Source: an uncultured Phycisphaeraceae bacterium (lineage in GTDB: Bacteria > Planctomycetota > Phycisphaerae > Phycisphaerales > Phycisphaeraceae). Taken from it: a stretch of DNA of 24,000 nucleotides. Below, in pieces: positions 158 through 21,006 of the stretch. The position numbers were made by a program, and so were the translations under genes. Position 1 is the stretch's first letter. Each line of letters begins with the position of its first letter. The DNA is taken from NCBI GenBank assembly GCA_963799335.1, contig CAWCWR010000005.1, positions 75,580 through 99,579 of the forward strand, given 5' to 3'. The notes under the pieces were generated by a model that had not been told where the DNA came from, did not search any database, and saw only the letters and a list, made by a program, of their open reading frames with translations.

Positions 158-625
158 TCACGCATCCGCGATTGATTTCAGCGCTGCACGGATTGATGAC
201 GTGAGCTGTTTCGCATCGTCGTCGCCCAATTCTCCTGCGGGCCACGAAAATCCGAATCCTTGTGTACTGACCGCGGCCGAATCACGGCCGCTTTGTGACC
301 CATACCTCGGAATGAGATGGAAATGCACGTGCATCACCTCTTGCCCGGCCGCGGTGCCGTTGTTTTGCAACAAGTTGACCCCGTCGCAGCCCGTTGCCGC
401 CTTGACCGCCGCGACCAACCGGGGTAACGCCGCACCTAGTGCCGCGCCCACTTCCGCGGGCACGTCGTCTAACTCGACGTAACGCACCTTGGGGATCAGC
501 AAACAATGCCCCCGCGACACCGGCCCCACATCGAGAAACGCCAATGTGTGCTCGTCCTCGGCAAGACGATGACACGGAATCTCGCCGTTCACGATACGCT
601 CAAAGATGCTGAGTTCCTGGCTCAC
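158..625 (-). CDS. HIT-family (histidine triad) nucleotide hydrolase/transferase, HinT-like, ~155 aa
   Basis: ORF 158..670 (-). Histidine-triad motif HVHFHLIP, plus 'IFERIVNGEIPCHRLAEDEHTLAFLDV' and 'GHCLLIPK', typical of the HIT fold. The first 15 tracked codons are Arg/Pro-rich and overlap the upstream gene. Conserved sequence begins at GTG 625..623, which overlaps the upstream TGA 624..622 (GTGA), so the start is placed at 625. Confidence 0.85.
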   Translation of the reverse strand: MSQELSIFERIVNGEIPCHRLAEDEHTLAFLDVGPVSRGHCLLIPKVRYVELDDVPAEVGAALGAALPRLVAAVKAATGCDGVNLLQNNGTAAGQEVMHVHFHLIPRYGSQSGRDSAAVSTQGFGFSWPAGELGDDDAKQLTSSIRAALKSIADA

Positions 626-3600
626 GGAAGGTCCTGATCGTCGAGGCGTTTCACGGCAACCACGGTCCACTTTCCTTTCGACCGGTCGAACGTGGCGATC
701 AGTCGATATTCGGAGGTCGGGTCGGGGATCAGGTCGCCGTCGGCGTCGCCGTTGAGGGTAAAGTCGCTGCCGGGGTAGGCCCGTACCAAAACGTAGGCGG
801 TATAAACGTCTGACCGCACCGAGACGGTTTGGTTGAGGTAATTAAAGAGCCGGGTCTGTTCTTCCCGGTCGTTGATGAATCGGTCGTCGTCGTCGCCGGG
901 CGAGGTATCGGGGCCGCCGAGGTCGGGTTCATATTCATTGAAGTCCAGGGCTTCATCGGCGGGATCGTACGCGGCGAAGCTGCCCGACGGATCGAAGATC
1001 TCCGTGAGGTAAGCCAGTTGCCCGGGGTTTTGGATTCCCACCGTGTTGAGACGGCGTTCGAGGAAGTCAGTCCCCGTGCCCGGGCTCACCGTTTCCCGCA
1101 AGCCGCGGATCTCCTGGGCGATGGCTTGGTTGGCGGGGGTTCCGCCGTTGGTGTTGACCGTGGGCAGGACGCGGCCCAGGTAGCGCTCGGGCATCGTGTT
1201 GATGTTGGGGCGTCCGGGCACCAGGGCCCGGTTGGTCTCGAGGGTCGTGAATCGCGAGACCAGGTAGCCCGCGTGGGAGATGCACAGGTTCGTGTTGTTG
1301 ACATACGTCGGCGTGCCGCTGCGGTTGTCTTCCAAATCCAGCATCGCGTCTCTGATCGCAAAGCGGTTGGCGGTCGTGGCGCCGAGGAAGTTGCTCCACA
1401 CGTCGGCCACCGTGAGGTGATCCACCGAGGAAAACGGGGCGGTGGCAAAAGGGTCGAGCCTCGGGCCGATCATCACGACACGGAGGATGTCGCCCGTGCG
1501 GTAGAAACGCCCGGCATTGCCGATGATCCACGGCTCATCGCCCGCGGTGAACGTGGCCCCCGCCGCAGCCGACGGCAACACCGCGTCCGGGGCATCGACC
1601 ATCCGGTCGTCGAGATCGATCGAAGCGTCGTTGGGATCGGTAACGACTTTGAGGTAAGCATCGAAGTAAGCCTCCCCGTTGTCGGGTCCCGCGTTGTCGA
1701 TGTTCTGCGGGGCATTGGGCTGGATGGTGGTCGCACCGGCAATCAGATTGGCCTCGGTGGTGGCGTAGTTGAAAATCTCGGATTCATCGGCCCGCACCGT
1801 GGTGGCGGCGATGCCGTTGCCCGTGCCGCGGGCGCTGGATTGGAAATACCCCACCCCCGAAGCGGTGGCGGCATCGCCGGTGCCTTCGGTAAATTCGCTG
1901 ACCCGGTTGCTGATGATGTCTTCGGCACCAAATTTTTGGTACGCCACCCGCTGCCCCACTTCGGTCATGGCTTCCAGCCGCACTTCCACCCGCGGCACCC
2001 AGGTCCACCGGCCAGGCGGCGGTCGGAGTGATGATCCCGATGGTGCCCTCGGCCGTCGCGATCGGGTCGGCCCCGGTGAGGTAGCGGTTCGCATCGGCGG
2101 GGGCAGACGCTTCCCCGTCGTTCTTGACCAGGATCAACACTTCGTAAGGATCGATCGTCGTTTTGCCGGGGAAACCGGCGGCCAAGGTGCCCCAGGAGAG
2201 CGGCGTGGTGGCGGTGCCGTCGTCCACGAAGACCTCGACATCGGGCATCCGGATCGTAAAGGGCCAAGGGTTGACCAATTCGATCGCGGCCCCGTACGCC
2301 TGGGGCACATAATCCCAGGTCACCTGGTCGTTGACCCCGGGCGAAGTGACCGCCGGCCCGGCCTTGGCGTAGCGCGCCTGCACGTAAACTTCGCTGATAA
2401 ACGGGAGGTATTCCATCCCGAAGACGCCGTCCTGGAAATCAAGCTTCACCGCGGGGACGCCGCCGTTGGCATCGGTATCGCGGAAGTCGGTCAGCAAGAC
2501 CGCCACCTGATCCGCGAAGCGTTTTTCGGTGGTCCAGCCCCCGTCGTCATATAGATTGGGCGTGGTGGGATTTGCCCCGAAATTGAAGCCGTCCTGAATC
2601 GCTTCCGAAAGCTCGATCGCGGTGGAGCGGTTGAGATCGATCTGTCCGTGGTTGGCGGAGCCGGAGATGACGGTCAACTGCTTGCGTGGCTCGGCGGTGC
2701 GATTAGTGGGACTGACAAAGTTATAGAAAAAGTTGGGGATCGTGACGAAGCCCGAATCCGGGTAGGCCGTCTCCGCGGGGGGGATGGTGGAGGCCCGGAA
2801 GAGGGCGGTGTCTAAGGCCTCCATCGGCGTGGTGGGGTCGGGGTTGACGTTGTCGCTGGCGCGGTTGAGGCCGCTGCGCCAGCGCAGCTCGATCTCGTCG
2901 ATCCGGGGATTGAAGAAGCTAAAGTTGTTGGTCGGCGGGGTGAAGGTATCGGTCGCGGTGATGACGCCGGACTGTTCGAGTTCCGTGCCGATGGTTTCCC
3001 AGTCGTCGAAGTCTTGCCGGGTGGCGTCGAGCCAAATGCCCAGCCGCTGGGTGAAACCCTGGTCGTTCATGTTGTGGCCCAGGGGCGTGCCGATGCCGGT
3101 GGTGGCGACGTCCAGCGCGGTGACGCTGCCGGTGCCCGCGGTGGTTTTCACGTCCTCGAGGGGATCGTGCAGATCGAGTTCGCCCGGCCACAGCCAGCGG
3201 GGCTGATCGGGGTTGCCCCCGGTGCTGCGGTTAAAGGCCCAGGCGTTGAGATCGATCAGCGCGGAGTTGTCGATGATGCGGACCGCCATGATGAACACCT
3301 GCCCGCCGTTGGAAGGCAGGGGCGCCCAGGTCCAGCGGCTGTCGGCAATGCCGTCGCCGGTGGCGTCGGCAAACAGCCCGAGGTCGCCCGCGGCCGCCAC
3401 GTCCGCCATCGAGGCGGCGGGCACGGTGTAGGCCACGCCGCTGGCTTTGCCGGGCATCGTGGTGACGGGCGATCCGACCGTGCCGTTGGCGGTCGACAGA
3501 TACTGTGCCGGCAGCGGTCGGCCGGCAGCGTCCCGGGGGTTAAGGGTCGTGTCGTGAAGCGGGCTGATATCGCTCAGGTCCAGAAACACGCCCGAGAGGT

Positions 3601-4318
3601 CGGTGATGTGGGGCCAATACTGGTACGACGGCGAACCGATCACGAGATTCGGCTCGATCGACGCCAGCCAGGGGTCGTCGTCCTGCCCGCCGGTGGCAAA
3701 CAGATTACCCGCCGTCGGGATGCTGCCGGCGGTGGGCGGCCCCGCGGCCCGGTCGTAGACCGCGGTCGCCGAGCGGGGCTCGCGTGCCGGCTGATCGTTA
3801 TTCGCCAGATTCGGCACCGGGCCGGGCACCGTGGTGGGAGCAAACCGGTCGGGCACCGTCCGCGGCGCATCATTGGGCCCGCCGAGGGTCGAGCCGTTCT
3901 GCACATTGGCGGGCGTGGGCTTGGAATACGCGATGTCGTAAAACTCGTTGCCGTTGAGCCCCGAGCCGTCGGGGTCCTGGGGGATATCGCCTTCGAGGAT
4001 GGTGCCGATGTAGCGCAGGATCGAGGCGTCCGAGACGTTGGAGCGAGAATCGACCGCCTCCGCGGTGCGGCGGTCCACCCGGGCAATCTGCAGGTACGCC
4101 GCCCCGAGCATGAGCAGCATGATCACGGTGACCAACGCCAGGATCAACGCTGAGCCCCGTCGGCCCGCCGGACGCGGACCCCTCCGACAGCGTCCGTCAG
4201 TTGTCGATACACCCCTGCCGCGGGGAGCGACGGCACACACCGAGTCAGCCCGGCGGGAGAGAATGGGGGGGCAGAAGGGAGAGGGGGGGCAGGGGGGGCA
4301 GGGGGGGCGGGTTGTCAT
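622..4318 (-). CDS. Giant GspK/PilX-like minor pseudopilin (~1,230 aa if read through). The frame switches once (net +1) near 1985-2015, between ORF 1784..4390 and ORF 622..2094
   Basis: Basic leader followed by a hydrophobic helix 'GSALILALVTVIMLLMLGAAYLQIA' that lacks Phe+1/Glu+5, as GspK-type proteins do. 'AVRIIDNSALIDLNAW' (~3240-3290) resembles the GspK I-D-...-N-L-N motif. The C-terminal 'VSVRSDVYTAYVLVRA...EYRLIATFDRSKGKWTVVAVKRL' resembles the GspK/PilX C-terminal pattern. Below ~2000 the upper ORF turns Arg/His/Gly-rich (out-of-frame look), while the lower ORF becomes protein-like ('VEVRLEAMTEVGQRVAYQKFGAED'). The start is uncertain: ATG 4318 is the first ATG, and the tracked TTG 4390 only reads poly-Pro through the C-rich spacer. 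Confidence 0.6.
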
Positions 4319-4386
4319 GGGACAGACCTTTCGCGGGGGATTGCGGGGGGAGCGGGGAGCGGGAGGCGGGGGCGGGGGGGGGGGGG
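4262..4386. repeat. G-tract block (C-tracts on the coding strand): four G7 runs, three of them as a 9-bp tandem GGGGGGGCA-type repeat (4283-4309), then G5, G6 and a G13 homopolymer (4374-4386) abutting the TGA of the upstream gene
   Basis: Read directly: G7 at 4265-4271, 4283-4289, 4292-4298 and 4301-4307; G13 at 4374-4386. Satisfies G3+N1-7 x4 quadruplex patterns on the + strand. Confidence 0.9.
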
Positions 4387-6129
4387 TCAATAAAGACCCT
4401 GCGGCCGGGGGACCGCGACGATGAGTTCAAACCATCGGCCAACTTCGGAATAATCTGTCGCGGTCTGCGGGTCGGTCTGAATCGTGCGGAACTCGCCCCG
4501 GCCGTCCATGAGGCGGAACCGGTAGCGGATGAGGTAAGGCCAGTATTTGCCCGCCCCCTCGATCACGTCCGGGTCGGTGGGCAAAGCGGGGGTCGCGATG
4601 TCGTCGCCGGTGTGGGACCAGACGAAGAGGACATTCTCGACGCCCGGAGCGGGAAAGCCGAGGACCATACCGGACGCGGGGTTGAATTCATAAACGAATG
4701 GATTGGGGATGGTCCCGACGGCAGCGGGATCAAAATTGGCAATCACGGCAGGCGCGGCGTAGGTCACCGGCAGGCGAGGATTCGCGTTGCCGATCCCGTC
4801 GAAGGTGCCGCCGAACGGCGAACCGGTGGTGCTGTCGGGGTTGGCAAAGAAGGGCGCGGTGTACCAGATGACGTCGCCGTTGAGGTCGCGGTCCGGTTCC
4901 CGGTCGGGCAGGCCGTCGGAACCCGAGGCGCTGGCGGCGGCGTCCCAGTCGTCGGCCCAGTCCGCGGCAAACTCGATGGCGAAGTCCGCGATGTGCGGGG
5001 CAAACGCCGCGTGGAGCTTGGCGAATTCGTCGGCCGTGAAAATGCCGCCGCTGAAATCGGTGTCCAGTGAGGTCCGCGCCCGGAGGCGCTGCCCTTGAAG
5101 CGCGTACATCCAGTCGAAGGCTAACCCGGCGTACGTCGCATTCATCAGGCCGCTGGGCGAACCCAGAGCGCTGCCGTAGATGCTTGGGTTGACCGGGGCG
5201 AGGGCGTCATGGGTGGGGGTGCGGAACAGCCCGCGACCGGCGGGGGCCGCGGGGTCTGTGCCGCCGTCGTCGTAAACGCTCAACGTCCCGAGGCTGGTGA
5301 GTTCCAGGGCGTCAGACTCGGCTTCATAGGTCGCCGCTTGGATGCTGGTTCCCTGAGATACACGTCCCACCACGCCGGTGCCGCCCGTGCCGTCGCCCAG
5401 CAGTCCGCCGGGATAAGTCGTCGCGTCGTCGTTCTCCACGATCAGCAGCGCCTGTCGGCCCAGGACCATCTGCGTGGCGAGTTCGTACTCGTTCTCGCCG
5501 CCGGGCCGATCGTTGCCCGGCGAGGCGAGGATGACATCCTCGGGCCAGACGTGGCCGTACCAGATGCGGGCGAAGCGGGCCTTGGCCTGCGAGTCGTACT
5601 GGCGGTCGGTGCCGGGCGTGAGCGATTCCAATCCGCCCGCCTGCCGGAAGAACGCGATCTGATCCGAACGCAGGCCCCTCACATCATTCCCGTTGAACGT
5701 CTCGTCGTTGTTGTAATCCAGAAAATCCGGCCAGGTCCGATTAGTGGCGGGCCCCGCTTCGACGCTGTTGTCGTCGGGGATGGGGTAATGCACGCCGGCA
5801 AACGCCTGCTGGGTGATCGCGAGGAACCCGGGGTTGTTGCTGCCGTACTTCGACAAGAACACGTTCATGTTCTTCATGTCGTTGGTCAACGGCTGCACCA
5901 CGCTGCGCGACTCGGCGATGATCTGACTGGTCTGAATCCCCCGCTGCACGCCCGCCTGGGCATCAAAAAAGATCCGCGCCGCCAACGTCATCATCAACGA
6001 CAAAATACTGATGGCCACCAGCAGTTCGATCAGCGTAAACGCGGCGCGACGACCGGCCGCCACCCCACGCCGACGCCCCCGGGGAGACGGGCTAGGCCGG
6101 GACAGTGGGTAGAGGGAGAGATCGTTCAT
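4387..6129 (-). CDS. Large prepilin-type N-terminal domain protein, 580 aa (GspJ position in the operon); intact
   Basis: ORF 4387..6162 (-). Class III signal-like 'GRRAAFTLIELLVAISILSLMMTLAA' (Phe+1, Glu+5, Ala at -1). The rest is a long Asp/Gly/Thr/Pro-rich secreted-looking domain with no recognisable family. ATG 6129 (MNDLSLYPL...) is preferred over the tracked TTG 6162. AAGG lies 8 nt upstream. Confidence 0.7.
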   Translation of the reverse strand: MNDLSLYPLSRPSPSPRGRRRGVAAGRRAAFTLIELLVAISILSLMMTLAARIFFDAQAGVQRGIQTSQIIAESRSVVQPLTNDMKNMNVFLSKYGSNNPGFLAITQQAFAGVHYPIPDDNSVEAGPATNRTWPDFLDYNNDETFNGNDVRGLRSDQIAFFRQAGGLESLTPGTDRQYDSQAKARFARIWYGHVWPEDVILASPGNDRPGGENEYELATQMVLGRQALLIVENDDATTYPGGLLGDGTGGTGVVGRVSQGTSIQAATYEAESDALELTSLGTLSVYDDGGTDPAAPAGRGLFRTPTHDALAPVNPSIYGSALGSPSGLMNATYAGLAFDWMYALQGQRLRARTSLDTDFSGGIFTADEFAKLHAAFAPHIADFAIEFAADWADDWDAAASASGSDGLPDREPDRDLNGDVIWYTAPFFANPDSTTGSPFGGTFDGIGNANPRLPVTYAAPAVIANFDPAAVGTIPNPFVYEFNPASGMVLGFPAPGVENVLFVWSHTGDDIATPALPTDPDVIEGAGKYWPYLIRYRFRLMDGRGEFRTIQTDPQTATDYSEVGRWFELIVAVPRPQGLY

Positions 6130-6175
6130 GATGAACCTTGGGTCGTGGCCCGGCCGCGTCAAGCCGTGGCCGGAA

Positions 6176-6246
6176 GGGCGGGGGGGGCGGCCGAGGGGGT
6201 GAAAGCGGGGCGGGGCTACAGGGGGAAACGAGGGGGGGCGGGGGGG
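6176..6246. repeat. G-tract block in the intercistronic spacer (poly-C in the mRNA), ending at the TAA of the upstream gene
   Basis: Runs G3, G8 (6180-6187), G5, G4, G4, G5, G7 (6232-6238), G7 (6240-6246). On the minus strand it reads TAACCCCCCCGCCCCCCCTC..., 19/20 identical to the element at 7484-7503. Confidence 0.9.
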
Positions 6247-7363
6247 TTAGTAGTCATTGGAGCGAACGACGGTGTTGGAGAGCAGGCGAATGTCAGCCAG
6301 CGGGGAATCTTGATTCGCCCCGCCGGGCGCCGGCGCCACCCAGATCGCCCGGAGGTCGCGTTCGTTAAGCGGCTCGTAAAGCGTTTCGGAAGCCAGGATC
6401 ATGCGGAACGGAGCCGCGCCATCATTCTGCACCTGGGCCACGCGGAAAATCTTGCCGTTATCGCCCAGTACTTTGTCGCCGGGCTTGACGTAGCCGAACA
6501 GATCGATTGAAGTTTCGACGAGATTGAGATTGCCGGTAACCGGATTAAACGCCGGGATGCGGAAGACCTTGGGGAAGTAGGCGGCGGCGTCGGGATTGGC
6601 GCAAACAATGGGGTCGGCATCGAAGTCGCCGTAGCCGTAGTTGGCGGCGGCGGTGTTGAGGGTATAGACGCCGCTTTCGCGCAGCTGGCTGGGGGGTTGG
6701 AGAATAAAGGCGTAGACGTTCCAGTCGGGAATGATCTCGCTGGCTTCGAGACCCGCCCGCACCAGCGGAACCCAGAACAATTCGCGATCGACGTAGCTGC
6801 CGGCCACCGCCGGCTGAATCGACGGCAGACTCCGAAACGCGACCGGAAAGCGGCCGGCGGCGTAGCGGCCGCCAAGGGTCTCGTAAACGTATGAATCATT
6901 GAGGTCGAGCGAATCCAGCCGCATGTCGGGCGTGTCGCCGACGTCGGTTGGCGTGGGCGTGGTGAAATCCAGAGCTGGTATCGATTTCAGCGAGGGCGAA
7001 GACGTCGTAAGCCGGGTCGGTCAGTCGGTAGTCGTTGGGAACCGAGGTTTCGGCACGGACTTCGTAAGCCGGATAGCCCGCCGGTTGGCTATCAATAAAC
7101 GTGATGAAGTCTAGCAGCGTGGCGTTGTCCAGGCCGACGCCTTCGAGCAGGGCATCGGTGGAGCGGGTGTGGTTCTGGCGCAGTGTTTCCTTGACCGCTT
7201 CCTTTTGCAGGAACGCCGCGGTGGGAAACAGCGACGCGACCGCGACGCTGCCGATCGCCAGGATGCCCAACGCTACAAGAACTTCGTTGAGGGTAAAGCC
7301 GCCGCGGACACGCGGATTGCGTGGCCGGGTGCCGAAAACAAGCGGATGAGGCAGTACGTTCAT
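6247..7363 (-). CDS. Prepilin-type protein with a GspI-like N-terminus, ~371 aa; one net +1 frame break near 6970-6975
   Basis: ORF 6896..7375 carries 'PRVRGGFTLNEVLVALGILAIGSVAVASLFP' (Gly-1, Phe+1, Glu+5). It turns Arg/His-rich after '...FALAEIDTS'. The continuation 'LDFTTPTPTDVGDTPDMRLDSLDLNDSYVYE...' is in the frame of ORF 6247..6924. ATG 7363 is preferred over TTG 7375. Confidence 0.65.
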
Positions 7364-7471
7364 GAGAAGGCTCAATGTCGGAACAAGACCGAAACGGCAG
7401 CAATTACCGGGGTCACCGGGGGAAGCGGGAAATCGAGGACGAGGAAGCGGAGGCGTGGGCGAGGCAACGGC

Positions 7472-7500
7472 GGGCAGGGGGGGGAGGGGGGACGGGGGGG
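7472..7500. repeat. G-tract block (G3, G8, G6, G7) immediately after the TAA of the upstream gene
   Basis: Read directly. The minus strand reads TAACCCCCCCGTCCCCCCTCCCCCCCCTGCCCG. Confidence 0.9.
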
Positions 7501-8518
7501 TTAGCGGGTGAGGTCCTGGCCGGTGTAGCGGTTGAAGAGCAGGATGCGGGCGTAGGTGCCCTGGTCCTGCGCCCAGTTCAGCAGGGCGGCCGATTCTCGC
7601 GGGCCGTAGACCGCCAACTGGTCACGCGGGAACTGCGAGTGCGCTGGCGGGGTAGATTGTTTCCTGGCCGCCGCCGTCGGGGTGAGCAAATTCGCGGGGT
7701 ACCCGTTCGGGCTCCAGCAGCAGCACGCCGGACACGGTTTCGATCGCGCCGAGGGGCAGTTGCACGCGGCCGTCGGCCATGCGTTCCGTGCCGCGATAGC
7801 CATACCGATCCAGGTCGACGGTTCCGCCGAAACCGACGCGGTCCCGGGAGATGTCGTAATTCACCACGTCGAAAGCTTTGGTGCCGCTGCCAAGGGTGGT
7901 CGTGCTGCCGGTCGGGCTGACGTAGACCAGCCGATCCCAGGTCGCGGGGGTGGGCGACGGGTGGATGCCGACGTTGTCGTCGGTGCCCTGGGCGATCGTG
8001 CCGTCGCCGGCAAAACGGATCGCAAAGGGCGGCGGCACGAGTTGGACGTCGTAGTCTCCCGGGCCGGTGCGCACGATGCCCAGGGCCTGGACCCGGCTGG
8101 GGTATCGAGATGTCTTCGAAGTCGGGGATGGGGGAGTAGCCATTGAGCGGGGGAACTTGCAGTTCCAGCCAACCGGCACTGGTCGCGAGCAACGGGTCGT
8201 AGGCGTTCTGGTCGTTGGCCATGATCCGCAGCGTGTTGTCGGGGGAGAACACGACGATCACACCCGAGTAGCCGTCGCCGTTGTCGTCGGCGGTAGCGCA
8301 GGGTGCTGCCGACGGTCCGGGCGGCGACAAAGGATTTGTTCTGCGTGGCGTAGACCCGGGCGGCCGAGAGGGCGTTGGAGACTTGCCCCTGGGCGGCGTT
8401 GATCGCAGTGTTCTGCAGCGATCGTGCTGAGGAATGGGAAGCTGATAGCCACCAAGATGGCGATCATCGAGATGACCACCAGCAACTCGATTAACGAGAA
8501 AGCGCGGACCTGCCGCAT
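7501..8518 (-). pseudogene. Prepilin-type protein (GspH position), ~339 aa when reconstructed; four net +1 frame breaks (~8425, ~8298, ~8096, ~7648)
   Basis: 'MRQVRAFSLIELLVVISMIAILVAISFPFLS' (ORF 8258..8587 frame). This continues as 'ARSLQNTAINAAQGQVSNALSAARVYATQNKSFVAARTVGSTL' (unlisted frame), then 'ATADDNGDGYSGVIVVFSPDNTLRIMANDQNAYDPLLATSAGWLELQVPPLNGYSPIPDFEDISIP' (frame of ORF 7578..9062), then 'RVQALGIVRTGPGDYDVQL...GGGQETIYP' (ORF 7622..8179), and ends with 'AHSQFPRDQLAVYGPRESAALLNWAQDQGTYARILLFNRYTGQDLTR*' (ORF 7501..7803). Confidence 0.55.
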
Positions 8519-8551
8519 TCGCCGGCGGCTCGTCGTTCGGCCAGCGTCGCA

Positions 8552-8582
8552 GGGCGGGGGGGAGATGATGGAGGGAGGGGGG
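8552..8582. repeat. G-tract block (G3, G7, G3, G6) in the spacer between the gspG-like and next pseudopilin genes
   Basis: Read directly: GGGCGGGGGGGAGATGATGGAGGGAGGGGGG. Confidence 0.85.
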
Positions 8583-8589
8583 TACATGC

Positions 8590-9294
8590 TTAAAGTCCGT
8601 CCAGGTCAAAGCTGTAGAGGTTGTCCTGGGCGTCGGCAACGCCGTCGTTGTCTTCGTCGACCGCGGGGTCGGGCTGATTGTTTTTGAGCGTGTTGCCCCA
8701 CAGGCCGTCGGGACCCGCGGAAGCAAAGAACGCGCTGGGGTGGGCCGGCAGGTAGTCGTCGGCGGTAAAGGTGTCGGTGTGGCTGACGCTGCCGGCGTAA
8801 CGGATTTTGTTGTCCCACACGTCGCGGAGCTCGATGTCGTCGATCCCGATTGCGGGGGCGGAGGCGGCGGCGGCCACGTCCGCGATCGGTTGACCGGCGA
8901 GGGTATTGCGCAGGTCTTTCTTGGCGGCAATCTCCAGCAGCCGGGCGGTGGTCGGCACCTGTCCCGCGGTTTTGACGAAGTAGCCGAAGGTGCAATCGTC
9001 GTCGTTGCCGTCGGTGACATCGTCGCCCACATTGAGTCCGACGATGGCGGTCCCGAACGCATCGGCCCCGAAGTGGCGCACCACGTTCTTGGTCACCACG
9101 TTGTAATCGTCGGCCGCGGCGCCGAGGCTGTTGAGCATGGCGCGGGTCTTTCCGCCGTCGGCGGAGCTGAGAAACTTGATGGCCACCGGAAACGAGATGC
9201 CGATCAGCAGCACGATGATCGAGATCGTCACGAGGATCTCGATGAGCGTGAAGCCGGGGGCGGCTCGGCGGGGGGCGGGCGAGGGTTGAGTCAT
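8590..9294 (-). CDS. gspG: Major pseudopilin, GspG-like, 234 aa; intact
   Basis: Lower part of ORF 8590..9558. 'MTQPSPAPRRAAPGFTLIEILVTISIIVLLIGISFPV' has canonical G|FTLIE. C-terminal 'FFASAGPDGLWGN' and the acidic 'DEDNDGVADAQD' resemble the GspG C-terminal S-x-G-x-DG / Ca-site region. It sits directly downstream of gspF. The upper 88 codons of the tracked ORF belong to the gspF C-terminus. Confidence 0.7.
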   Translation of the reverse strand: MTQPSPAPRRAAPGFTLIEILVTISIIVLLIGISFPVAIKFLSSADGGKTRAMLNSLGAAADDYNVVTKNVVRHFGADAFGTAIVGLNVGDDVTDGNDDDCTFGYFVKTAGQVPTTARLLEIAAKKDLRNTLAGQPIADVAAAASAPAIGIDDIELRDVWDNKIRYAGSVSHTDTFTADDYLPAHPSAFFASAGPDGLWGNTLKNNQPDPAVDEDNDGVADAQDNLYSFDLDGL

Positions 9295-9341
9295 GGTAAA
9301 TCTCTGGATTGCGGGGACAGAGTCGGGGCCTGGGCCGAGGT

Positions 9342-10676
9342 TTACATCACCGACTGCATCAGCTTGACCAGGGGCAGGAAGAGGGCGATGACGATCATGC
9401 CGACGATGCCGCCGAGGACGACGACCATGATGGGTTCGAGCAGGCGACACGAGGCCGGCGACGGCGACATCGACTTCTTCGTCGTAGTTGTCGGCGATCT
9501 TCAGCAGCATCTTGTCCAGGTCACCGGTCTCTTCGCCCACGTCGATCATGTTGACCACCAGCGGGTCGCAGACCTTGGCCTTGCGCAGCGGCTCGGCGAA
9601 GCTGTCGCCCTGGCGGACGCTGTCGTGGACGTCGTTGAGGGCGTTGGAATAGACGTTGTTGGCGGTGGTTTCGGAGGTGATGGTGATCGCGTCGAGGATC
9701 GGGCACGCCGGCGTTGACCAGGGTGCCCAGGGTCCGGGTGAATTTGGCGATCGTGGCCTTGCGGACCAGCTGGCCCAGGACGGGGGTCAGGAGGATCATG
9801 CGGTCGAAGACGGCCTTGCCGCCGGAGGTCTTGCGGAGCATCTTGACGGCAAAGAAGATGACGAAAGGCGAAAGCAGGACCCACACGATCCCGGGGATCA
9901 TCTGGTCGGCGTTGATGGTGTCTTCCTTGGCGCCCATGTACGCCAGCAGCGCAGCCGCCGAGCCACTTGGACATCTCGATGAGCCAGACGGTCAGCGCGG
10001 GCATGTCGGTGTCGAAGTCGTCGAAGATCTCGATGAACTTGGGCACGATCAGGATCATGATGCCCAGCACGATGATGCCGGCGACGGTGATGACCGCGGC
10101 GGGGTAGATCATCGCGGAGATGATGCGGCGCTTGAGGCGGGCGGCTTTTTCGAGGAACTCGGCGAGGCGCTGCAGGATGATGTCCAGCACACCGCCGACT
10201 TCGCCCGCGGCGATCATTTTGGTGTAGAGGACGTTGAAGGCTTTGGGGTGTTTGGCAAACGCGTCGGAGAGCGAGACTGCCCGAGGAGACGTCTTCGTGG
10301 ACGTCTTCGAGGGTGTTCTTCATGAGGCCGGGCTTCTGCTGCTGCTCGAGGATCGACAGCGAGCGGAGGATGGGCAGGCCCGCGTCCTGGAGGGTGGAGA
10401 GCTGGCGGGTGAAGAGGGTCAGGTGCTTTTGGCTGACGCCGCCGATGTTGATGACGATGCCGCCGCGCACCTTTTCTTGCCGTCCTTACCGCCGCCTTTG
10501 CTGCCGCCGGAGCTGCCGCCTTTAGAGCCTTTTTTGACTTTCTGTTCGCGGATGGAGGTGGGGAAAAAGCCTTGACTTTTGATGCGGGCCAGGGCTTCGT
10601 CGCTGTTGGCGGCGTTGATCGTGCCTTTTTGGGGCTTGCCGGAGTCGTTGAGGGCTTCGAACTGGAAGGTGGGCAT
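9342..10676 (-). pseudogene. gspF: GspF/PilC-type inner-membrane platform protein (~444 aa reconstructed); 5 frame breaks (~10473 net -1; ~10276, ~9963, ~9702, ~9445 net +1)
   Basis: Tiles across ORFs 10419..10676, 9898..10470, 9546..10217, 9521..9937 and 8590..9558, plus a short terminal frame. The pieces are 'MPTFQFEALNDSGKPQKGTINAANSDEALARIKSQGFFP', 'LTLFTRQLSTLQDAGLPILRSLSIL', 'SLSDAFAKHPKAFNVLYTKMIAAGEVGGVLDIILQRLAEFLEK', 'VFDRMILLTPVLGQLVRKATIAKFTRTLGTLVNAGVP', 'ILDAITITSETTANNVY...VVNMIDVGEETGDLDKMLLKIADNYDEEVD' and 'LLEPIMVVVLGGIVGMIVIALFLPLVKLMQSVM*'. GGAG lies 7 nt before ATG 10676. Confidence 0.85.
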
Positions 10677-10820
10677 GACGGAACTCCGGTATCTAAGTTT
10701 GGATTGTTAGAGTGGAGGAATAAGGTTGACATCGAAGCGAAGCGGGGTGGCCGATGACGGCAGGGCGGCGATCGGGGAACGCAGGGGGGCGTGGCGGAAG
10801 TCGAGGGTTAATCTCGGCAA

Positions 10821-10853
10821 ATCAAAAATCGGGCTTGGACATCTATCAAAAAT
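10821..10853. repeat. Direct repeat ATCAAAAAT x2 (10821-10829 and 10845-10853; ATTTTTGAT on the coding strand) in an AT-rich patch between gspE and gspF
   Basis: Read directly; 24-bp start-to-start spacing. On the minus strand the first copy overlaps a TTGATA hexamer. Confidence 0.6.
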
Positions 10854-10876
10854 GCGGAAATAACGACGAGCGTGAT

Positions 10877-12613
10877 TCAGTCTTCGATCATGGTTTCTTT
10901 GACGACTTCGTCGATGGTGGTCGCTGCCGTCGTAGAGGGCCATGAGGCCGGACTGGCGGAGGGTGCGCATGCCGCGTTTGCGGGCTTCGGCCCGGAGTAG
11001 CTGGGACGAGGCTTGCTTCATGATCAGGTCGCGCATCTCGTCGTCGAGGATCATGACTTCGAAGATGCCCATCCGGCCTTTGTAGCCCGAGTGGTTGCAG
11101 TAGTCGCAGCCCACGCCGCGGTAAGAGCTGCCGACCTTCGAGGTCTTCGGGCGTGAGGTTGAGCAGGAACAGCTCGTCTTCCGACGGTGTGTAGGCCTCT
11201 TTGCACCGCTGACAGATTTTGCGGACCAGCCGCTGGGCGAGGATGCCTTCGATGGTCGCGGTGATGAGGAAGGATTCGAGGCCCAGGTCCAGAAGACGGG
11301 CGATGGAGGAGGGGGCGTCGTTGGTGTGGAGGGTGGTGAACACCAGGTGGCCGGTGAGCGAAGCCTGCACGCCGATGCGGGCGGTTTCGAGGTCGCGGGT
11401 TTCGCCGATCAGGACGATATCGGGGTCCTGCCGCAGGAAGCTTCGGAGGGCGGCGGCAAAGGTGAGGCCCACGTCGGGGTTGACCTGCACCTGGCAGAGC
11501 CCATCGATGTCGTACTCGACGGGGTCCTCGGCGGTGAGGATTTTTTCGGTGACCTGGTTGAGTTCCGCCAGCGCGGAGTAGAGGGTCGTGGTCTTGCCCG
11601 AGCCGGTGGGGCCGGTGACGATCACGATGCCGTTGGGCTTGTGGATGAGTTGGCGGAAGGTTTCGAGGTCGTCGGGCCGCATGCCGACCTTGTCGAGGTC
11701 GAGGTTGACGTTGCCGCGGTCGAGCACCCGCATGACGACCGATTCGCCGAACATGGTCGGCAGCACCGCGATGCGCAGGTCGACCGGCTCACCGCCCACG
11801 ACCAGCTCGATGCGGCCGTCCTGGGGCAGGCGACGCTCGGCGATGTCGAGGTCCGCCATGACCTTGATCCGCGAAACGATCGGGGTTGGCGAGGTGCCGG
11901 GGCGGGGGGATCATCTCGTAGAGCACGCCGTCGATGCGGTAGCGCATCTTGAACTCGTCTTCAAACGGCTCGAAGTGGATGTCGCTGGCCTTGTCCTTGA
12001 TCGCCTGAAGCAGGACGAGGTTCAGCAGCCGGATGACGCGGTTGTCGTTGGCCATCGCCATCTCGTCTTCGAGGTCGATCGGATGAGCCACGGTCGCCGA
12101 ACTCGTCGAGGTCTTCGTCCTCGGCCAGGCCGGCCACGAGCGAGGCGAGCGATTCTTCGTCTTCGCCGTAATGCCGGTCGATCAGCGTGTCGATCTGCTC
12201 GGCGGGTGCCACCACCGCTTCGACCTTGAACCCCATCAGCAGACCGCAGGTCGTCCAGCGCCCGGAAGTTGTCCGCCGACTTGAGCGCCACCGTCAGCAT
12301 GTTGGACTCGGCATCGTGATCGGATGGGCAGCACGTGGTAGGCGTTGGCCATCTCGGCGGGCACCATCTTGATGACCTCTTCTTTGATTTCGAGTTCTTC
12401 GAGATCGACGACTTTCATCCCCGCCTGGGCGGCAAGGGCGAAGTTGACATCGTCGTGAGAGCAATAGCCCAGCTCGACCAACAGCTGGCCGACCGGCGCC
12501 CGCTTCTGCTTCTGCAGCTCCAAAGCCTCCTGGGCCTGGTCACGGGTGATCTTGCCCATTTTGGTGAGGACTCGTCCGAGGCGTCGTCCCTGAAGTTCGG
12601 CGGTACTGGCCAT
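10877..12613 (-). pseudogene. gspE: GspE/PilB-family secretion ATPase with an N-terminal MshEN/T2SSE_N domain (~577 aa reconstructed); 6 net +1 frame breaks (~12322, ~12243, ~12092, ~11881, ~11123, ~10922)
   Basis: Tiles across ORFs 12236..12613, 12022..12300, 11961..12236, 11789..12091, 10888..11859 and 10707..11114, plus a short terminal frame. Supporting sequence:
- N-terminal 'RLGRVLTKMGKITRDQAQEALELQ'
- '[26 protein letters not shown]'
- '[24 protein letters not shown]'
- Walker A '[15 protein letters not shown]'
- '[12 protein letters not shown]'
- '[21 protein letters not shown]'
- tetracysteine 'CQRCKEAY...[13 protein letters not shown]'
- end '...[14 protein letters not shown]'. Confidence 0.88.
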
Positions 12614-12863
12614 AATCGAAGTTCCGTGGAGTTCAGTTTTCCAAGTGTCCCGTCACCTGCAAGCAGTGAGACGGGATATGATCGCGGGCAGGTGGGGGCG
12701 TTGCAAGAAATCGAGTCGGCAATGAGACGGCTAGCAGCCATCGCGGGTCGGGTTCATTCCTAATCATACGTGATCCCCACCGCGTTCCCAAGCGAATAGG
12801 GCCGTGAGAGAGGGGTGGGACACGTGGATTATTTGATCAGTCGAATTGATGGCGACCGCGAAC

Positions 12864-12890
12864 AAGCCCGCCCCGAGGGGGGGCGGGCTT
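12864..12890 (-). terminator. Perfect 11-bp GC-rich hairpin (AAGCCCGCCCC / GGGGCGGGCTT, 5-nt loop) ~100 nt downstream of the pilT stop; no canonical U-tract
   Basis: Inverted repeat read directly, inside the only long (380 nt) gap of the cluster. The missing T-run keeps confidence low; it could be an RNA-stabilising or processing hairpin instead. Confidence 0.35.
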
Positions 12891-12992
12891 GGGGCGGTGT
12901 CTGATTATTCTAGAAGTTCGTGGAAGGTTTGCCGGGAGCATCAGGGATTTGAACCGGGTGCTGTTGATGATTTTTGCGAGCCAGGGTGGATC

Positions 12993-14118
12993 TTAGGCCG
13001 CATTGTCATCGAGCTCTGGCCGGCCGATGGTGCCGCCCGCCCGGTGGACTTTTTCGATTAGGGAGTCGGCATTGGACGAGCGGTCGATCATGTCGCCAGC
13101 GTCGATAAGGTCTTTCTCATAAAGTTCCCAGAGGAAGTCGTCGAGCAGCTTCATGCCGAACTTCTTGCCGGTCTGGATCGCCGAGGGGATTTTGAAAGAC
13201 TGGGCCTCGCGGATGAGGTTGGAGATGGCGGGGGTGACGACCATAAATTCGTAGGCGGCGATCATGCCTTTGGGCTTACGTTTCATCAGCTGCTGGCAGA
13301 GCACCGCAATCAGGGCCACCGAGAGCTGGGCCCGGACCTGCTGCTGCTGATTGGTGGGGAAGGCGTCGACGAGGCGGTTGATGGTGCCGGCCGCGGAGTT
13401 GGTGTGGAGGGTGCCGAACACGAGGTGGCCGGTCTCGGCGGCGGTGATGGCGGCTTCGATGGTTTCGAGGTCACGCATCTCGCCGACCAGGATCACGTCG
13501 GGGTCCTGACGCAGGGCCCGCCGCAGGGCTTCGGAGAAGCTGGGCACGTCGGTGCCGATCTCGCGCTGGTTAACGATGGATTTTTTATGGGGCTGGTAGT
13601 ATTCGATCGGGTCCTCGACCGTGATGATGTGTCGGTCGAGGTTGATGTTGATGTAGTCGATCATCGACGCGAGGGTCGTGGTCTTGCCCGAGCCGGTGGG
13701 CCCGGTGACCAGGAACAGGCCGCGGGGCCGGCGGATCAGGTCCTTGACGATCGGCGGCAGGCCGATCTTGTCGATGTCCAGCAGCAAGTTGGGAATGCGG
13801 CGCAGCACCATGGCGACGCTGCCTTTCTGGCGGAAAATCGAGACACGAAAGCGGGCGGATTTTTCGGCATCATCTTGGTCGCCGTAGGAGAAGCCGAAGT
13901 CCGAGCCGCCCGCTCTCCTGCAGCTCGTTCTGGGCGCGTTCGGGGCTGATGGCTTTCATCAGCGCGGTGGTGTCGTCGGGCTCGAGGACTTTGGTCTTGA
14001 GCTCGACGAGTCGGCCGGACATCCGGACGGTGGGGGGCTTGCCGACGGTCAGGTGCAGGTCGCTGGCTTCCTGCTTGATGACGGTGTCGAGCAGACGATC
14101 GATTTGCATGGCGGACAT
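12993..14118 (-). CDS. pilT: PilT-type retraction ATPase (~374 aa); one net +1 frame break ~13908
   Basis: ORF 13870..14118 ('MSAMQIDRLLDTVIKQEASDLHLTVGKPP...ELQESG') joins the frame of ORF 12993..13811 ('GSDFGFSYGDQDDAEKSARFRVSIFRQKGSVAMVLRRIP'). It has Walker A '[14 protein letters not shown]', 'DPDVILVGEMRD', 'TGHLVFGTLHTN' and the PilT signature 'AISNLIRE' (canonical AIRNLIRE). It has no N-terminal MshEN domain and is small, as PilT is. Confidence 0.88.
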
Positions 14119-14267
14119 GGGCGTGGCCTCTTAGGCGCTAGGCGAGGAGCACTCGCAGGAAATTGATTTAGTAAGAATCCAACGGGTTAACGGTTATCGG
14201 AGCGGGTCATCGTGGAGCGTGGGAGTCAGCGGATCGCGTGTTATGGGTATGCGTAGCGCCGCTGGTC

Positions 14268-16050
14268 TCACGCCGCCAGATCGTCTTCGTCATCCCCGAC
14301 ATCGACGACGCCTTCGACCTGGGCGATCTTGGCGATCTCGTCGAGGGTGGTCTGGCCGTCGAGGATTTTGAGCTTGCCGTCACCCAGCAGCGTCCGCATG
14401 CCCGAGGCCACCGCCGCGGCCCGGATCTTGCCGACCGGGGCACGGTTGAACGCCAGCTCGCGGATCTCGGAGTTCATAAACATGATCTCGTAGATCCCGC
14501 GACGGCCGCGGAAACCGGTGTCGCCGCAGCGGGTGCAGCCGCCGGGTTTGTAGATGGTTTTACCTTCCAAGTCGTCGCGGGTCATGCCGCAGAGGGCCAT
14601 GCAGTCTTGCGATCGGGGTCGACCTCGGGCTCTTTGCAATGGTCGCAGAGGATCCGGACCAGCCGCTGGCCAAGCACCGCCTGGATCGAGCTGGCCACGA
14701 GGAACGGCTTGAGGCCCATGTCGATCAGGCGGGTGATGGCCGAGGGGGCGTCGTTGGTGTGCAGGGTGCGAGAACACCATGTGGCCGGTGAGGGCGGCCT
14801 GCACCGCGACTTCGCCGACTTCCTGGTCGCGGATTTCACCGACGAGGATGATATTGGGTGCCTGCCGCAACATCGCACGAAGAATAAGCTTGAAGTCCAG
14901 CGGCGGGTCCATCTGCATGTTGACCTGGCACTGGTTGATCCCCTTGAAGTTGTATTCGATGGGGTCCTCGGCCGTGATGATCTTGCGGTCGGGGCGGTTG
15001 AGCTCGTTCAGTGCCGAGTAGAGCGTGGTGGTCTTGCCCGAGCCGGTGGGGCCGGTGACCAGGAAGATGCCGTTGGGCCGGTTGATGACTTTGTTGAAGC
15101 CTTCGAGCGTGTCGGGCCTCATGCCGAGTTTTTCGAGGCCGAGCATCGCCGCTTCGGGCGCAGGATACGCATGACGATCGATTCGCCGTGGTAGGTCGGG
15201 CAGCAGGAAAAGCGGAAGTCGGTGACCTTGCCCTCGATGCGCATCTTGATCCGGCCGTCCTGCGGGATGCGTTTTTCTTCGACGCGGACGCCGGCCATGA
15301 TCTTGAGGCGGGCGATGACCGAGCCCTGCGTCCGCTTGGGGATCGTGTTGCGTTCGTGGCAGACGCCGTCGATGCGGTAGCGCAGCCGCACGCGGTTTTC
15401 AAAAGGCTCGATGTGGATGTCCGACGCCCGGCCGTTGACCGCCTCGGCGATGATCTGGTTGCACCAGCTTGATGATCGGGCCTTGCTGGGCTTTGTCCGC
15501 ATCGTTGCCGTCGGCGTCGATGTCGATGGATTTGTCCATCGTCGAGTCAAGGCTCATGTCCAGCGAAGTGTCGACGGACATGTCCATCGTCAGCTTGTCG
15601 ATGGAGTTCTTCACATCCGACATGACGTTGTCGATGTATTCGCTGATCTTGTTCTTGGCCGAGAGGGCCAGCTCGACCTTGCCGCCCAGGCGGAACTGCA
15701 GGTCGTCGATCAGGTTGATGTCCATCGGGTCGTGGACCAGGACCTTGAGGGTGTTGCCCTCTTTGCCCAGGGGCAGGACGAGGTACTTCTTAATCATGTC
15801 CGGCGGGATCAGCTCGAGCTGGTTGCGGTCGATGACGTTGGGCTGATCGAGATCGACGAACTCGAGACCGAACTGGGAGGCCAGCGCTTTGGCGATATCG
15901 TTTTCGGAGACGTGTCCGGCCGCGACGAGGGCTTCGCCGATGCGCTTGCGTGACCCCTTGGACAGATTTAAGGGCGTCTTCGATCTGCTTATCGTCGACG
16001 AGTCGCCACTGCTTGAGGATTTGTCCGAGTTGTAGCCGTTTGCGTGCCAT
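14268..16050 (-). pseudogene. pilB: PilB/GspE-family extension ATPase with N-terminal MshEN-type repeats (~593 aa reconstructed); 5 frame breaks (~15955-15966, ~15461, ~14768 net +1; ~15160, ~14605 net -1)
   Basis: Tiles across the frames of ORFs 15790..16143, 15399..16484, 15119..15550, 14268..15146 and 14582..14878, then back to 14268..15146. Supporting sequence:
- 'MARKRLQLGQILKQWRLVDDKQIEDALKS'
- 'KGSRKRIGEALVAAGHVSENDIAKALASQFGLEFVDL'
- 'NQIIAEAVNGRASDIHIEPFENRVRLRYRIDGV'
- 'RIPQDGRIKMRIEG'
- Walker A '[15 protein letters not shown]'
- '[19 protein letters not shown]'
- 'CDHCKEP...GCTRCGDTGFRGR'
The symbol is family-level only (pilB vs gspE cannot be resolved here). Confidence 0.85.
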
Positions 16051-16254
16051 CGGCACCTCTGTAAGTAGGTGGAGTCGGCCTTGGGCGGCGGTGCCCGGGG
16101 CCGGGGGGCTTTGAAGTATGCGGCTGCGGACGGTGAAAGGCAAGCCCCGGGCGGTGAACCGGGCGGCCTGACGGACGTATTAGCAGTCCCGGGACTTCGG
16201 CGGTCGAAGCCGGTGCACGACAGAATGAGGCACGCGAAAGACGTGTAATTAAAC

Positions 16255-16259
16255 AGGAG
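16255..16259 (+). promoter_or_regulatory. Shine-Dalgarno-like AGGAG, 7 nt upstream of ATG 16267
   Basis: aaacAGGAGttttccgATG read directly. Confidence 0.5.
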
Positions 16260-16266
16260 TTTTCCG

Positions 16267-17205
16267 ATGAACAGACGGACTTGGATCGCGGGGCTGGTAG
16301 CGGCGGGGGCGGTGGGCTGGTCGGCGATGTCGATGCACGCCGAGATCCAGGCCCAGGAGATGGCCGAGGAATCGCAAGAATCGACAGCCGAGTTCCGCCC
16401 CGGTTTTCTGGGGGTGGCGGTCGCCGAGACGTCGCGGTCCGTAGGGGGGGAGTTGCGGGCCCCGGCCCTCGTGGTAGCGGGCATCCAACCCGGCTCGCCC
16501 GCCGAGACGGCTGGGCTCCAGACCGGCGACGTGCTGATTCGATTGGAAGATCAACGCCTGGTCCACCCCGAACAGCTGCGCCGTCTGGTAATGGCCTATC
16601 CGGCAGGACAGGAGATGAGCGTAACGCTTTGGCGGGAGGGGCAACCGCAAACCATGACGGTGACGCTAGCCGAGCGGCCGATGGAATGGGACCGACCCGA
16701 AGGTTCTCTGCCGGGTGTTTGGAATCATTTGCCGCTGGATGAGCTCGGGGCGATCGGAGAATTCGACGAAATGCCACGGCTTGATCTGGACAGATTCGAC
16801 GACGACGCGATAAAGCAGCAAATTAAACGTATGCAATCGGACCTTGATCAGCACATGCAGGCGATGCGGAAACGGTTCAAGACCGAAAAAGATGGGGGGC
16901 GTGTCGGACCACCCGTAGAGGAGGCAATGCGTCATCCGTTGCTGCCCGGGCGATCGAGCTTGCAGGTGTTGCAAGACTCGCAGCATCGATTAACCATCCG
17001 TCAGGACGCCGACGGCCGACACCTCCACGCCACCGACTCCGCTGGGAACGTGATTTATGATGGTCCCATCAACACCGAGACCCAGCTTCTTAAGGTCCCC
17101 CCGGCCATCCTTGACAAGATTCCATCGCCCGCTCCGCAGCAGGTTCCATCCGACGAACTTTCGCCCGCTTCGTTGCCCCCCGACCCGCCGGGCCGCGGGG
17201 TTTGA
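16267..17205 (+). CDS. Secreted PDZ-domain protein, 312 aa; intact
   Basis: ORF 16267..17205. Signal-peptide-like 'MNRRTWIAGLVAAGAVGWSAMSMHA'. PDZ core 'GFLGVAV...ALVVAGIQPGSPAETAGLQTGDVLIRLEDQRLVHPEQLRRLV...MSVTLWREGQ'. The C-terminal half has no recognisable family. Confidence 0.75.
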   Translation: MNRRTWIAGLVAAGAVGWSAMSMHAEIQAQEMAEESQESTAEFRPGFLGVAVAETSRSVGGELRAPALVVAGIQPGSPAETAGLQTGDVLIRLEDQRLVHPEQLRRLVMAYPAGQEMSVTLWREGQPQTMTVTLAERPMEWDRPEGSLPGVWNHLPLDELGAIGEFDEMPRLDLDRFDDDAIKQQIKRMQSDLDQHMQAMRKRFKTEKDGGRVGPPVEEAMRHPLLPGRSSLQVLQDSQHRLTIRQDADGRHLHATDSAGNVIYDGPINTETQLLKVPPAILDKIPSPAPQQVPSDELSPASLPPDPPGRGV

Positions 17206-17353
17206 GCCCGATCAACGTCCATCCAGCTCCGTCTAGGTTTTGCAGGGCGGTTGAGAGATACCGAACTGATTGCCGATGTGTTGATATTTATAGAAGCTCG
17301 TATGGCAAAACGGGTAGAGTCTCCTACGATGCCGGGCCGTGCCAAGCCGTCGA

Positions 17354-17889: not shown

Positions 17890-18094
17890 TCGGCAGTGAA
17901 ACGTTCAGGTTCACCCCAGTTTCCAACCGATAAACCCGGATAAGACCCCCGACGTTTGGTCGTCCGCGCTGCCCTCCGTGTGGCACCGAGATTGCAACCT
18001 GTACCCATGGCTGACTCACGCTCGATCCTGAGACACACCCTCTCTTGAACCTTGATCAAACGTGCGACACGCTCTCGAACCGCTGGGCACGCGC

Positions 18095-18141: not shown

Positions 18142-20718
<2,577 letters not shown>

Positions 20719-20822: not shown

Positions 20823-21006
20823 AGTTCCGTGAGACTGAAATCTAGTCGGAACCTCTTAAGTGACTCCGGTGTTTGCCCGAAGTATTGGGTGACGGTCAAC
20901 TTCCCCGCTGAGTGGGAACAACTATGAGTGCCGTTGCCGGTTCGTCGATCCGTAGACCGACCGGTCTTGCTTCACACACTTGCCCGGGGGGGTAAGTCAC
21001 CATCTC

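Follow-up and report, generated by a model that had tools for sequence, protein, structure and literature searches.

The window analyzed here is the whole 24,000-nucleotide (nt) stretch between positions 75,580 and 99,579 of contig CAWCWR010000005.1 (assembly GCA_963799335.1), which comes from an uncultured Phycisphaeraceae bacterium. It contains a real type IV pilus-like gene cluster that is conserved across the class Phycisphaerae. The nine genes of this cluster, all on the minus strand from 16050 to 622 in a frameshift-aware alignment to intact orthologues, probably constitute a functional type IV filament locus that is nearest to the type IVa pili (T4aP), is conserved in Phycisphaerae, and is arranged as 2 adjacent transcription units.

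The window is 60-69% G+C and rich in spurious open reading frames (ORFs), and in a mechanical ORF list the ATPase and platform genes appear as fragments in different frames. To build the gene models, a dynamic program that tolerates frameshifts was used to align the window with intact orthologues taken from related contigs. The resulting features are as follows, with stop codons included in the coordinates of the cluster genes and lengths in amino acids (aa).

pilB1, 16050..14268, minus strand: PilB/GspE-family extension ATPase, 592 aa corrected; frameshifts at about 15963, 15461, 15159, 14771 and 14605
pilT, 14118..12993, minus strand: retraction ATPase, 374 aa corrected; one frameshift at about 13908-13930
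pilT-pilB2 intergenic gap, 12614-12992: 380 nt, with the pilT stop at 12993 and the pilB2 ATG at 12613
pilB2, 12613..10877, minus strand: second PilB/GspE-family ATPase (called 'GspE-like' in a preliminary description of this DNA), about 578 aa; frameshifts at about 12323, 12243, 12080, 11881, 11125 and 10924
pilC/gspF, 10676..9342, minus strand: inner-membrane platform, 442 aa corrected; frameshifts at about 10470, 10278, 9950, 9704 and 9444
p1, 9294..8590, minus strand: candidate major (pseudo)pilin, 234 aa, G-1/F1/E5; intact
p2, 8518..7501, minus strand: minor pilin in the GspH/FimU position, about 338 aa, FSLIELL (E5); frameshifts at about 8419, 8292, 8102 and 7669
p3, 7363..6247, minus strand: minor pilin in the GspI/PilV position, about 371 aa, GFTLNEVL (E5); one frameshift at about 6930-7015
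p4, 6129..4387, minus strand: minor pilin in the GspJ/PilW position, 580 aa, AFTLIELL (E5); intact
'big', about 4318..622, minus strand: GspK/PilX-like pilin-like protein, about 1,170-1,230 aa; one frameshift at about 1948-2094
HIT-family hydrolase gene, 625..158, minus strand: begins with a GTG that shares bases with the TGA stop of 'big' (GTGA)
PDZ gene, divergent: start at 16267

The preliminary description had counted 10 co-directional minus-strand genes behind a divergent gene at 16267, with short gaps except for one at 12614-12992. The 10 genes are the 9 cluster genes and the HIT gene; the PDZ gene start and the long gap are both exact, and the remaining gaps are at most about 150 nt save for 200 nt between pilB2 and pilC. 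Its list of parts (2 PilB/GspE-family ATPases, PilT, 1 platform, and 5 pilin-like proteins) is right as well. ORFs 1784-4390 and 622-2094 are a single gene, 'big', because the frame is interrupted by an indel; orthologues of 'big' are undivided genes encoding 1,085-1,219 aa.

The cultured Algisphaera agarilytica has the order PDZ(divergent)-pilB1-pilT-gap-pilB2-pilC-p1-p2-p3-p4-big intact, and a 5.76-Mb genome has it intact apart from the divergent PDZ gene; at least 14 further species have the same gene order. A scan of GTDB species genomes with a profile of 'big' recovered 30 loci, all from Phycisphaerae except for one weak match. Complete or near-complete genomes of cultured strains that carry the cluster include those of A. 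agarilytica, Phycisphaera mikurensis, and Poriferisphaera corsica.

Motors, platform, and pilin-like subunits

PilT had been described as bona fide on the basis of its AISNLIRE signature and the lack of an N-terminal domain, and this holds: AISNLIRE is found at residue 297, no N-terminal MshEN domain is present, and the protein passes TIGR01420 with a score of 431.7 against a cutoff of 319.1. It matches PilT structures with E values of about 1e-100. A PilT/PilU-family retraction ATPase, which is expected of a type IVa pilus, is therefore part of the cluster, and the gene for PilT directly precedes pilB2 in at least 16 species.

The products of pilB1 and pilB2 are 42% identical to each other, and each has Walker A and B motifs, Asp and His boxes, a tetracysteine motif (2 CxxC pairs in pilB1), and an N-terminal MshEN domain. 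Both pass NF053729, the model for the MshEN motif that binds cyclic diguanylate (c-di-GMP), with scores of 47.6 for pilB1 (residues 7-59) and 48.7 for pilB2 (residues 6-58) against a cutoff of 38, and Pfam MshEN also matches both. The PilB equivalog TIGR02538 is the best-scoring model for the 2 long ATPases (656.0 for pilB2 and 595.3 for pilB1), and both miss the GspE equivalog TIGR02533 (627.2 and 568.8, respectively, with a cutoff of 630.25). Equivalogs of the competence (Com) systems are missed too, with scores of 235.7 and 244.9 on ComGA (cutoff 300) and 119.7 on ComGB (cutoff 240). The ATPases were placed by comparing bit scores over the same core region. By this measure the core of pilB2 has 475 bits to Geobacter PilB, 460 to Myxococcus PilB, and 425-431 to Vibrio GspE, and that of pilB1 has 394 and 398 bits to Geobacter and Myxococcus PilB versus 364-372 to Vibrio GspE. 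The label 'GspE-like' that the downstream ATPase had been given finds no support, since pilB2 has the same MshEN c-di-GMP motif as pilB1 and a core nearer to PilB than to GspE. If anything, pilB2 would be the more canonical PilB of the two, since its scores on the PilB model and to the PilB cores are the higher ones.

The platform protein contains 2 T2SSF domains and can be assigned by its scores to the PilC/GspF family, at a point between the GspF and PilC models: 379.8 on GspF (cutoff 424), 364.1 on the Myxococcus type of PilC (cutoff 700), and 324.3 on the Thermus type.

Of the 5 pilin-like subunits, 4 (p1 to p4) match N_methyl and carry Glu5. The features looked for in a type IVa pilus, namely a class III prepilin signal (G or A at -1, F1, and E5) and 4 minor pilins, are thus found here. 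The smallest of the pilin-like proteins, p1, is also encoded first, and its C-terminus has a conserved FFASAGPDGLWG...DNLYSF motif. It fails the GspG equivalog TIGR01710 (24.8 against a cutoff of 88.85, over the N-terminal helix only), and Pfam T2SSG was found in none of 8 p1 orthologues at E values up to 1. An AlphaFold2 (AF2) model of p4, with a mean predicted local distance difference test score (pLDDT) of 77.5, has a long N-terminal pilin helix and a beta-rich head. A Foldseek search of the PDB with this model gave no match with E < 1 that would place p4 in GspJ/PilW. Its P. mikurensis orthologue is named as a PulJ/GspJ family protein by NCBI.

The last and by far the largest subunit, 'big', has the N-terminus RGSALILALVTV, with G-1 but no E5, as in PilX and GspK, and the segment RGSALxLALVTV is conserved in its family. 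Of 32 family members, 8 have a weak Pfam T2SSK match (best E 0.027) and 1 matches PilX_N, and a PDB profile search with the family gave no sequence match. The AF2 model of the closest intact homolog (pLDDT 82.3) contains an Ig domain resembling a lamin tail (Foldseek E 7e-4), and the only pilin-family folds that it matches are GspK 3ci0_K (E 0.087, probability 0.33) and XcpX 6utu_C (E 0.24). The family comprises 2,799 representatives at 50% identity, 612 of them at E values up to 1e-30; the members listed are about 1,000-1,500 aa long and have no Pfam domain, and all of the named relatives that were sampled are hypothetical proteins of Planctomycetota or Phycisphaeraceae.

Family knowledge suggests how these parts might work together. 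The first unit, pilB1-pilT, would provide an extension and a retraction ATPase, and the second, pilB2-pilC-p1-p2-p3-p4-big-HIT, would provide an extension ATPase, the platform, a major pilin, 3 minor pilins with E5, a GspK/PilX-like subunit of giant size that lacks E5, and a hydrolase of the HIT family. A priming or tip complex of p2, p3, p4, and 'big' would assemble on PilC, p1 would be polymerized under it by a PilB hexamer, and PilT would then swap in and depolymerize the fiber, which would cause retraction. Extension is probably gated by c-di-GMP, since both PilB paralogs carry the predicted MshEN c-di-GMP-binding motif, and the 2 motors may serve different conditions or different sets of pilins. 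The prepilin peptidase and any outer-membrane conduit would be encoded elsewhere.

Two modules and their surroundings

The 380-nt gap is likely the boundary between 2 transcription units. A 12-bp GC-rich hairpin (AAGCCCGCCCCC/GGGGGCGGGCUU; z-score -3.47) lies at about 12890-12862 on the minus strand, roughly 100 nt past the pilT stop, and a promoter-like TTGGGA-17-TATGAT follows at 12791..12763 on the same strand, 150 nt ahead of pilB2. The hairpin is strong in the window and shorter in Algisphaera, where it comes directly after pilT, and none of the other relatives has a convincing one. Aligned across 5 loci, the gap retains only short shared motifs (51% mean column identity). An Rfam search of the whole window gave no family at gathering score, and therefore no riboswitch is placed in the gap. 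Gene content points to the same boundary. At the position adjacent to pilB2, pilB1-pilT are absent in P. mikurensis and at least 7 other species, and in P. corsica 6.7 kb of opposite-strand genes lie between the pilB1-pilT and pilB2 modules. This combination of a hairpin, a promoter-like site, and modules that can be separated suggests 2 adjacent, separable transcription units.

The HIT gene follows 'big' in 5 relatives, and the 4-nt overlap recurs in 2 of the related contigs, L005 and L007; HIT closes the downstream module in relatives as a conserved and probably translationally coupled gene. In relatives, HIT is commonly followed by one more gene of prepilin type (N_methyl, in many cases with DUF1559/SBP_bac_10), for example at 16184-16915 in L004, 11392-12258 in L005, and 10182-11006 in L007, a position that lies beyond the end of the window; N_methyl and DUF1559 are the most recurrent families among 126 flank ORFs. 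On the other side of the cluster, an intact HDOD-GGDEF gene of the diguanylate cyclase type is found at 20980-22431 on the plus strand, 5 kb from the ATPases with MshEN motifs; in Algisphaera a PilZ gene lies beside the PDZ gene instead (L009, 8262-8693). A DUF4139-like ORF at 22877-23953 on the minus strand has a weak Pfam match that is below cutoff (E 4.6e-5).

As the preliminary description had stated, no secretin, alignment-complex, or peptidase gene is encoded in the window: Pfam scans of the other window genes gave no match to a secretin, GspC/L/M, PilMNOP, or prepilin peptidase. It had also taken such genes in the immediate flanks as evidence that would overturn its reading, and among the Pfam-annotated genes within about 10 kb of 9 related loci there is no secretin, PilMNOP, GspCLM, or Peptidase_A24. 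The same components are not among the 25 most frequent of 53 and of 71 families in the 126 flank ORFs of 24 further loci, where a single weak match could be hidden.

Frameshifts in the window

The gene models contain 23 small indels in 7 of the 9 cluster genes (5 in pilB1, 1 in pilT, 6 in pilB2, 5 in pilC, 4 in p2, 1 in p3, and 1 in 'big'). Single extra bases account for 19 of them and the others are two +2, one -1, and one -2, all at non-homopolymer sites. GATC methylation motifs were considered as a cause and rejected, with 6 of the 23 indels within 8 nt of such a motif (random p of about 0.19). We conclude that the frameshifts are almost certainly errors of the assembly consensus and not biology. 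The corrected proteins have zero internal stops, and corrected PilB1, PilB2, and PilC are 94% identical to those of the nearest relative (L010) at a DNA identity of 88.5-89.4%. Protein identity of 94% at a DNA identity of about 89%, together with the lack of stops, indicates purifying selection and not decay, and the 23 indels are unique to the window.

Genes outside the cluster are affected as well. A clpB/clpC-type AAA+ chaperone gene at 18142-20718 on the plus strand (Clp_N, AAA_lid_9, AAA_2, and ClpB_D2-small) is split over at least 3 frames, and the indel problem thus also reaches a conserved housekeeping gene beyond the pilus cluster. In a cytochrome c gene at about 17360-17890 on the plus strand, the window has GGG at about 17542 where the Logan contig L001 has GGGG, a 1-nt deletion. 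Positions 16016-17942 are the only part of the window matched by an independent contig; L001 is 99.9% identical there over 1,928 nt and encodes an intact cytochrome c of 176 aa. An independent copy of PilB1 with 100% identity, sought in order to check the indels directly, was not found, and the best match is 94% identical. Two other metagenome assemblies of the 'contig_N' type are broken in different places, namely in pilB2 (L004, 3562-5384) and in pilT (L010, 6232-7358), and similar consensus errors seem to be common in such assemblies.

The alternative, that the cluster in this genome is a decaying array of pseudogenes and the frameshifts are real mutations, is scarcely credible. It would account for 23 frameshifts across 7 of 9 genes and for their concentration in the motor and platform genes, and the gene call for 'big' in the source record, on a contig of 1,502,570 bp, is likewise a truncated fragment of 844 aa (P0145). 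Against it, the corrected proteins without stops are 88-94% identical to their orthologues at a DNA identity of about 89%, which is incompatible with selection relaxed for long enough to accumulate 23 indels; the housekeeping clp-type ATPase gene and the cytochrome c gene are also broken; and the cytochrome c indel is absent from an independent contig of the same population. The assembly therefore has many single-base insertions in conserved genes, and its gene calls should not be read as pseudogenes.

Alternative readings and relation to known systems

Several observations weigh against a T4aP-like filament locus. Both long ATPases remain below the PilB equivalog cutoff of 675.65, and pilB2 is just 3 bits short of passing as GspE. 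For the platform, the GspF model yields a slightly better score than the PilC models do, and p1, judged by eye, has a GspG-like C-terminal motif of the SxGPDG type. In about one third of the species, the downstream module has no adjacent PilT, as would be the case in a type II secretion system (T2SS). No PilMNOPQ or PilD was found in the window or in flanks of about 10 kb at some 35 loci, with whole genomes outside the search. The indels are very unevenly spread: pilB1, pilT, pilB2, pilC, and p2 contain 21 of the 23, and the remaining genes ('big', p4, p3, and p1; 7.3 kb) only 2, a pattern that a uniform error model fails to explain; one possible cause of such clustering is a polishing artifact in which reads of related populations are aligned together on the conserved genes. 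The fiber, the operon structure, and c-di-GMP binding are all predicted from sequence.

Some of these observations could mean that the downstream module, from pilB2 to 'big', is a true T2SS with the genes for its secretin and GspC/L/M at another locus or with other parts in their place, and with pilB1-pilT as an unrelated neighbor that serves a separate type IV pilus. The physical separability of the modules and the occurrence of the downstream one without an adjacent PilT in P. mikurensis and at least 7 other species would fit this, as would the position of 'big' and its weak GspK signals, the scores of pilB2 and the platform on the GspE and GspF models, and the PulJ/GspJ name of the P. mikurensis p4 orthologue. 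The E-F-G-H-I-J-K-like gene order to which the preliminary description had drawn attention is present, but it is no argument for a T2SS since it is common to the minor-pilin operons of T4aP. The term 'T2SS/T4P hybrid' is for the same reason partly a matter of labels. We consider a T2SS unlikely. The N-terminus of pilB2 is of the PilB/MshE type, an MshEN domain with the c-di-GMP motif, and its core favors Geobacter PilB over Vibrio GspE by 45 bits; p1 does not reach the cutoff of the GspG equivalog, and T2SSG is found in none of 8 p1 orthologues. A T2SS would be expected to encode GspD and GspC/L/M with the core, which is not the case in the window or the examined flanks, and to have no associated retraction ATPase, where PilT is encoded immediately ahead of pilB2 both here and in 16 or more related species. 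In T2SS generally, one locus holds the whole system, secretin included, in 96.5% of cases (PMC4793230); in the flanks of the roughly 35 loci examined here, no secretin was seen.

The preliminary description had instead presented the cluster as self-contained. In its strict form, this would be a retractable pseudopilus truly without a secretin and alignment complex, with 2 extension motors on a single platform, and we regard it as very unlikely. A single platform gene does accompany 2 PilB-type genes and 1 PilT in at least 16 species, and no secretin, PilMNOP, GspCLM, or Peptidase_A24 was found in any examined flank. However, a prepilin peptidase is indispensable for prepilins with G-1/F1/E5. 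Since none is encoded in the cluster, the E5 prepilins need one from outside it, and the cluster cannot be strictly self-contained. The modules are moreover separable in P. mikurensis and P. corsica, and the flanks examined extend only about 10 kb to each side of each locus and do not represent whole genomes. Type IV pili (T4P) are normally encoded in several loci (PMC4793230), and because their genes are usually dispersed in this way, the local absence of a secretin is not diagnostic. We retain the functional T4aP-like filament locus in 2 transcription units as the preferred reading.

Full-text literature searches on T4P, secretins, PilT, T2SS, and DUF1559 in Planctomycetes and Phycisphaerae turned up no account of the cluster. 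It represents a familiar machine in a variant that is unstudied; every component belongs to a known superfamily, and public genomes carry these genes with routine annotation. Two features are directly testable: the pair of paralogous extension ATPases with c-di-GMP motifs around 1 PilT and 1 platform, and the giant tip subunit, which is pilin-like and comes from a family that has about 2,800 representatives at 50% identity but no Pfam model. The cell envelope of Planctomycetota is unusual. Their surface fibers have been proposed to capture or import macromolecules, and according to a 2025 review the components behind planctomycete pili and fiber-mediated uptake are unknown (PMC12673574). The cluster offers conserved, class-wide candidate machinery for these fibers. 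It is a long shot that the Phycisphaerae filament truly lacks a secretin and a PilMNOP-type alignment complex and runs 2 c-di-GMP-gated PilB and 1 PilT on a single platform beneath a modular GspK-like tip of 1,100-1,400 aa; if it did, such a secretin-less machine could be the missing molecular basis of planctomycete surface fibers.

Four known systems are closest to the cluster. The Verru_Chthon cassette (TIGR02596 and TIGR02599) shares with it the encoding of multi-gene sets of large prepilin-like proteins in bacteria of the Planctomycetes-Verrucomicrobia-Chlamydiae group, and its proteins D and C are the best non-generic NCBIfam matches of p2 and p4. These matches are confined to 60-80 N-terminal residues, and their scores fall far short of the cutoffs (40.3 versus 70 and 27.9 versus 256.5 on TIGR02596 and TIGR02599). 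MshE, the ATPase of the mannose-sensitive hemagglutinin (MSH) pilus, is comparable with the 2 long ATPases of the cluster in that both of these pass NF053729, the model of an MshE-related motif, and Pfam MshEN, and an HDOD-GGDEF gene lies 5 kb away, but the cluster lacks other Msh components. MSH systems are without PilT.

The T2SS core (gspE-F-G-H-I-J-K) resembles the cluster in having an ATPase, a platform, a major subunit, and 4 minor subunits in this order, the last of them GspK-like and without E5, and the platform scores best on GspF, with pilB2 just under the GspE cutoff. The cluster differs from a T2SS in that its locus is without GspD, C, L, M, or O, in the adjacent PilT of most species, and in the MshEN-type N-terminus of its ATPases; its p1 fails the GspG model, and its subunits are far larger than GspH to GspK.

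The T4aP of Myxococcus xanthus and Geobacter provide the closest solved homologs of both long ATPases and PilT. Unlike T4aP, the cluster has 2 PilB paralogs, 42% identical, flanking PilT with a single platform, and these 2 ATPases and the platform score below equivalog cutoffs; no pilMNOPQ or pilD was seen near it in the window or the flanks of about 10 kb. Its minor pilins are 2-4 times the usual size, and its large tip component is itself pilin-like, with an N-terminus of the GspK/PilX type, in place of a separate PilY1. What the cluster shares with T4aP is PilB beside PilT, a single platform of the PilC/GspF family, an MshEN-type N-terminus on the extension ATPase, and a major pilin with 4 tip or priming subunits, of which the last is very large and lacks E5.

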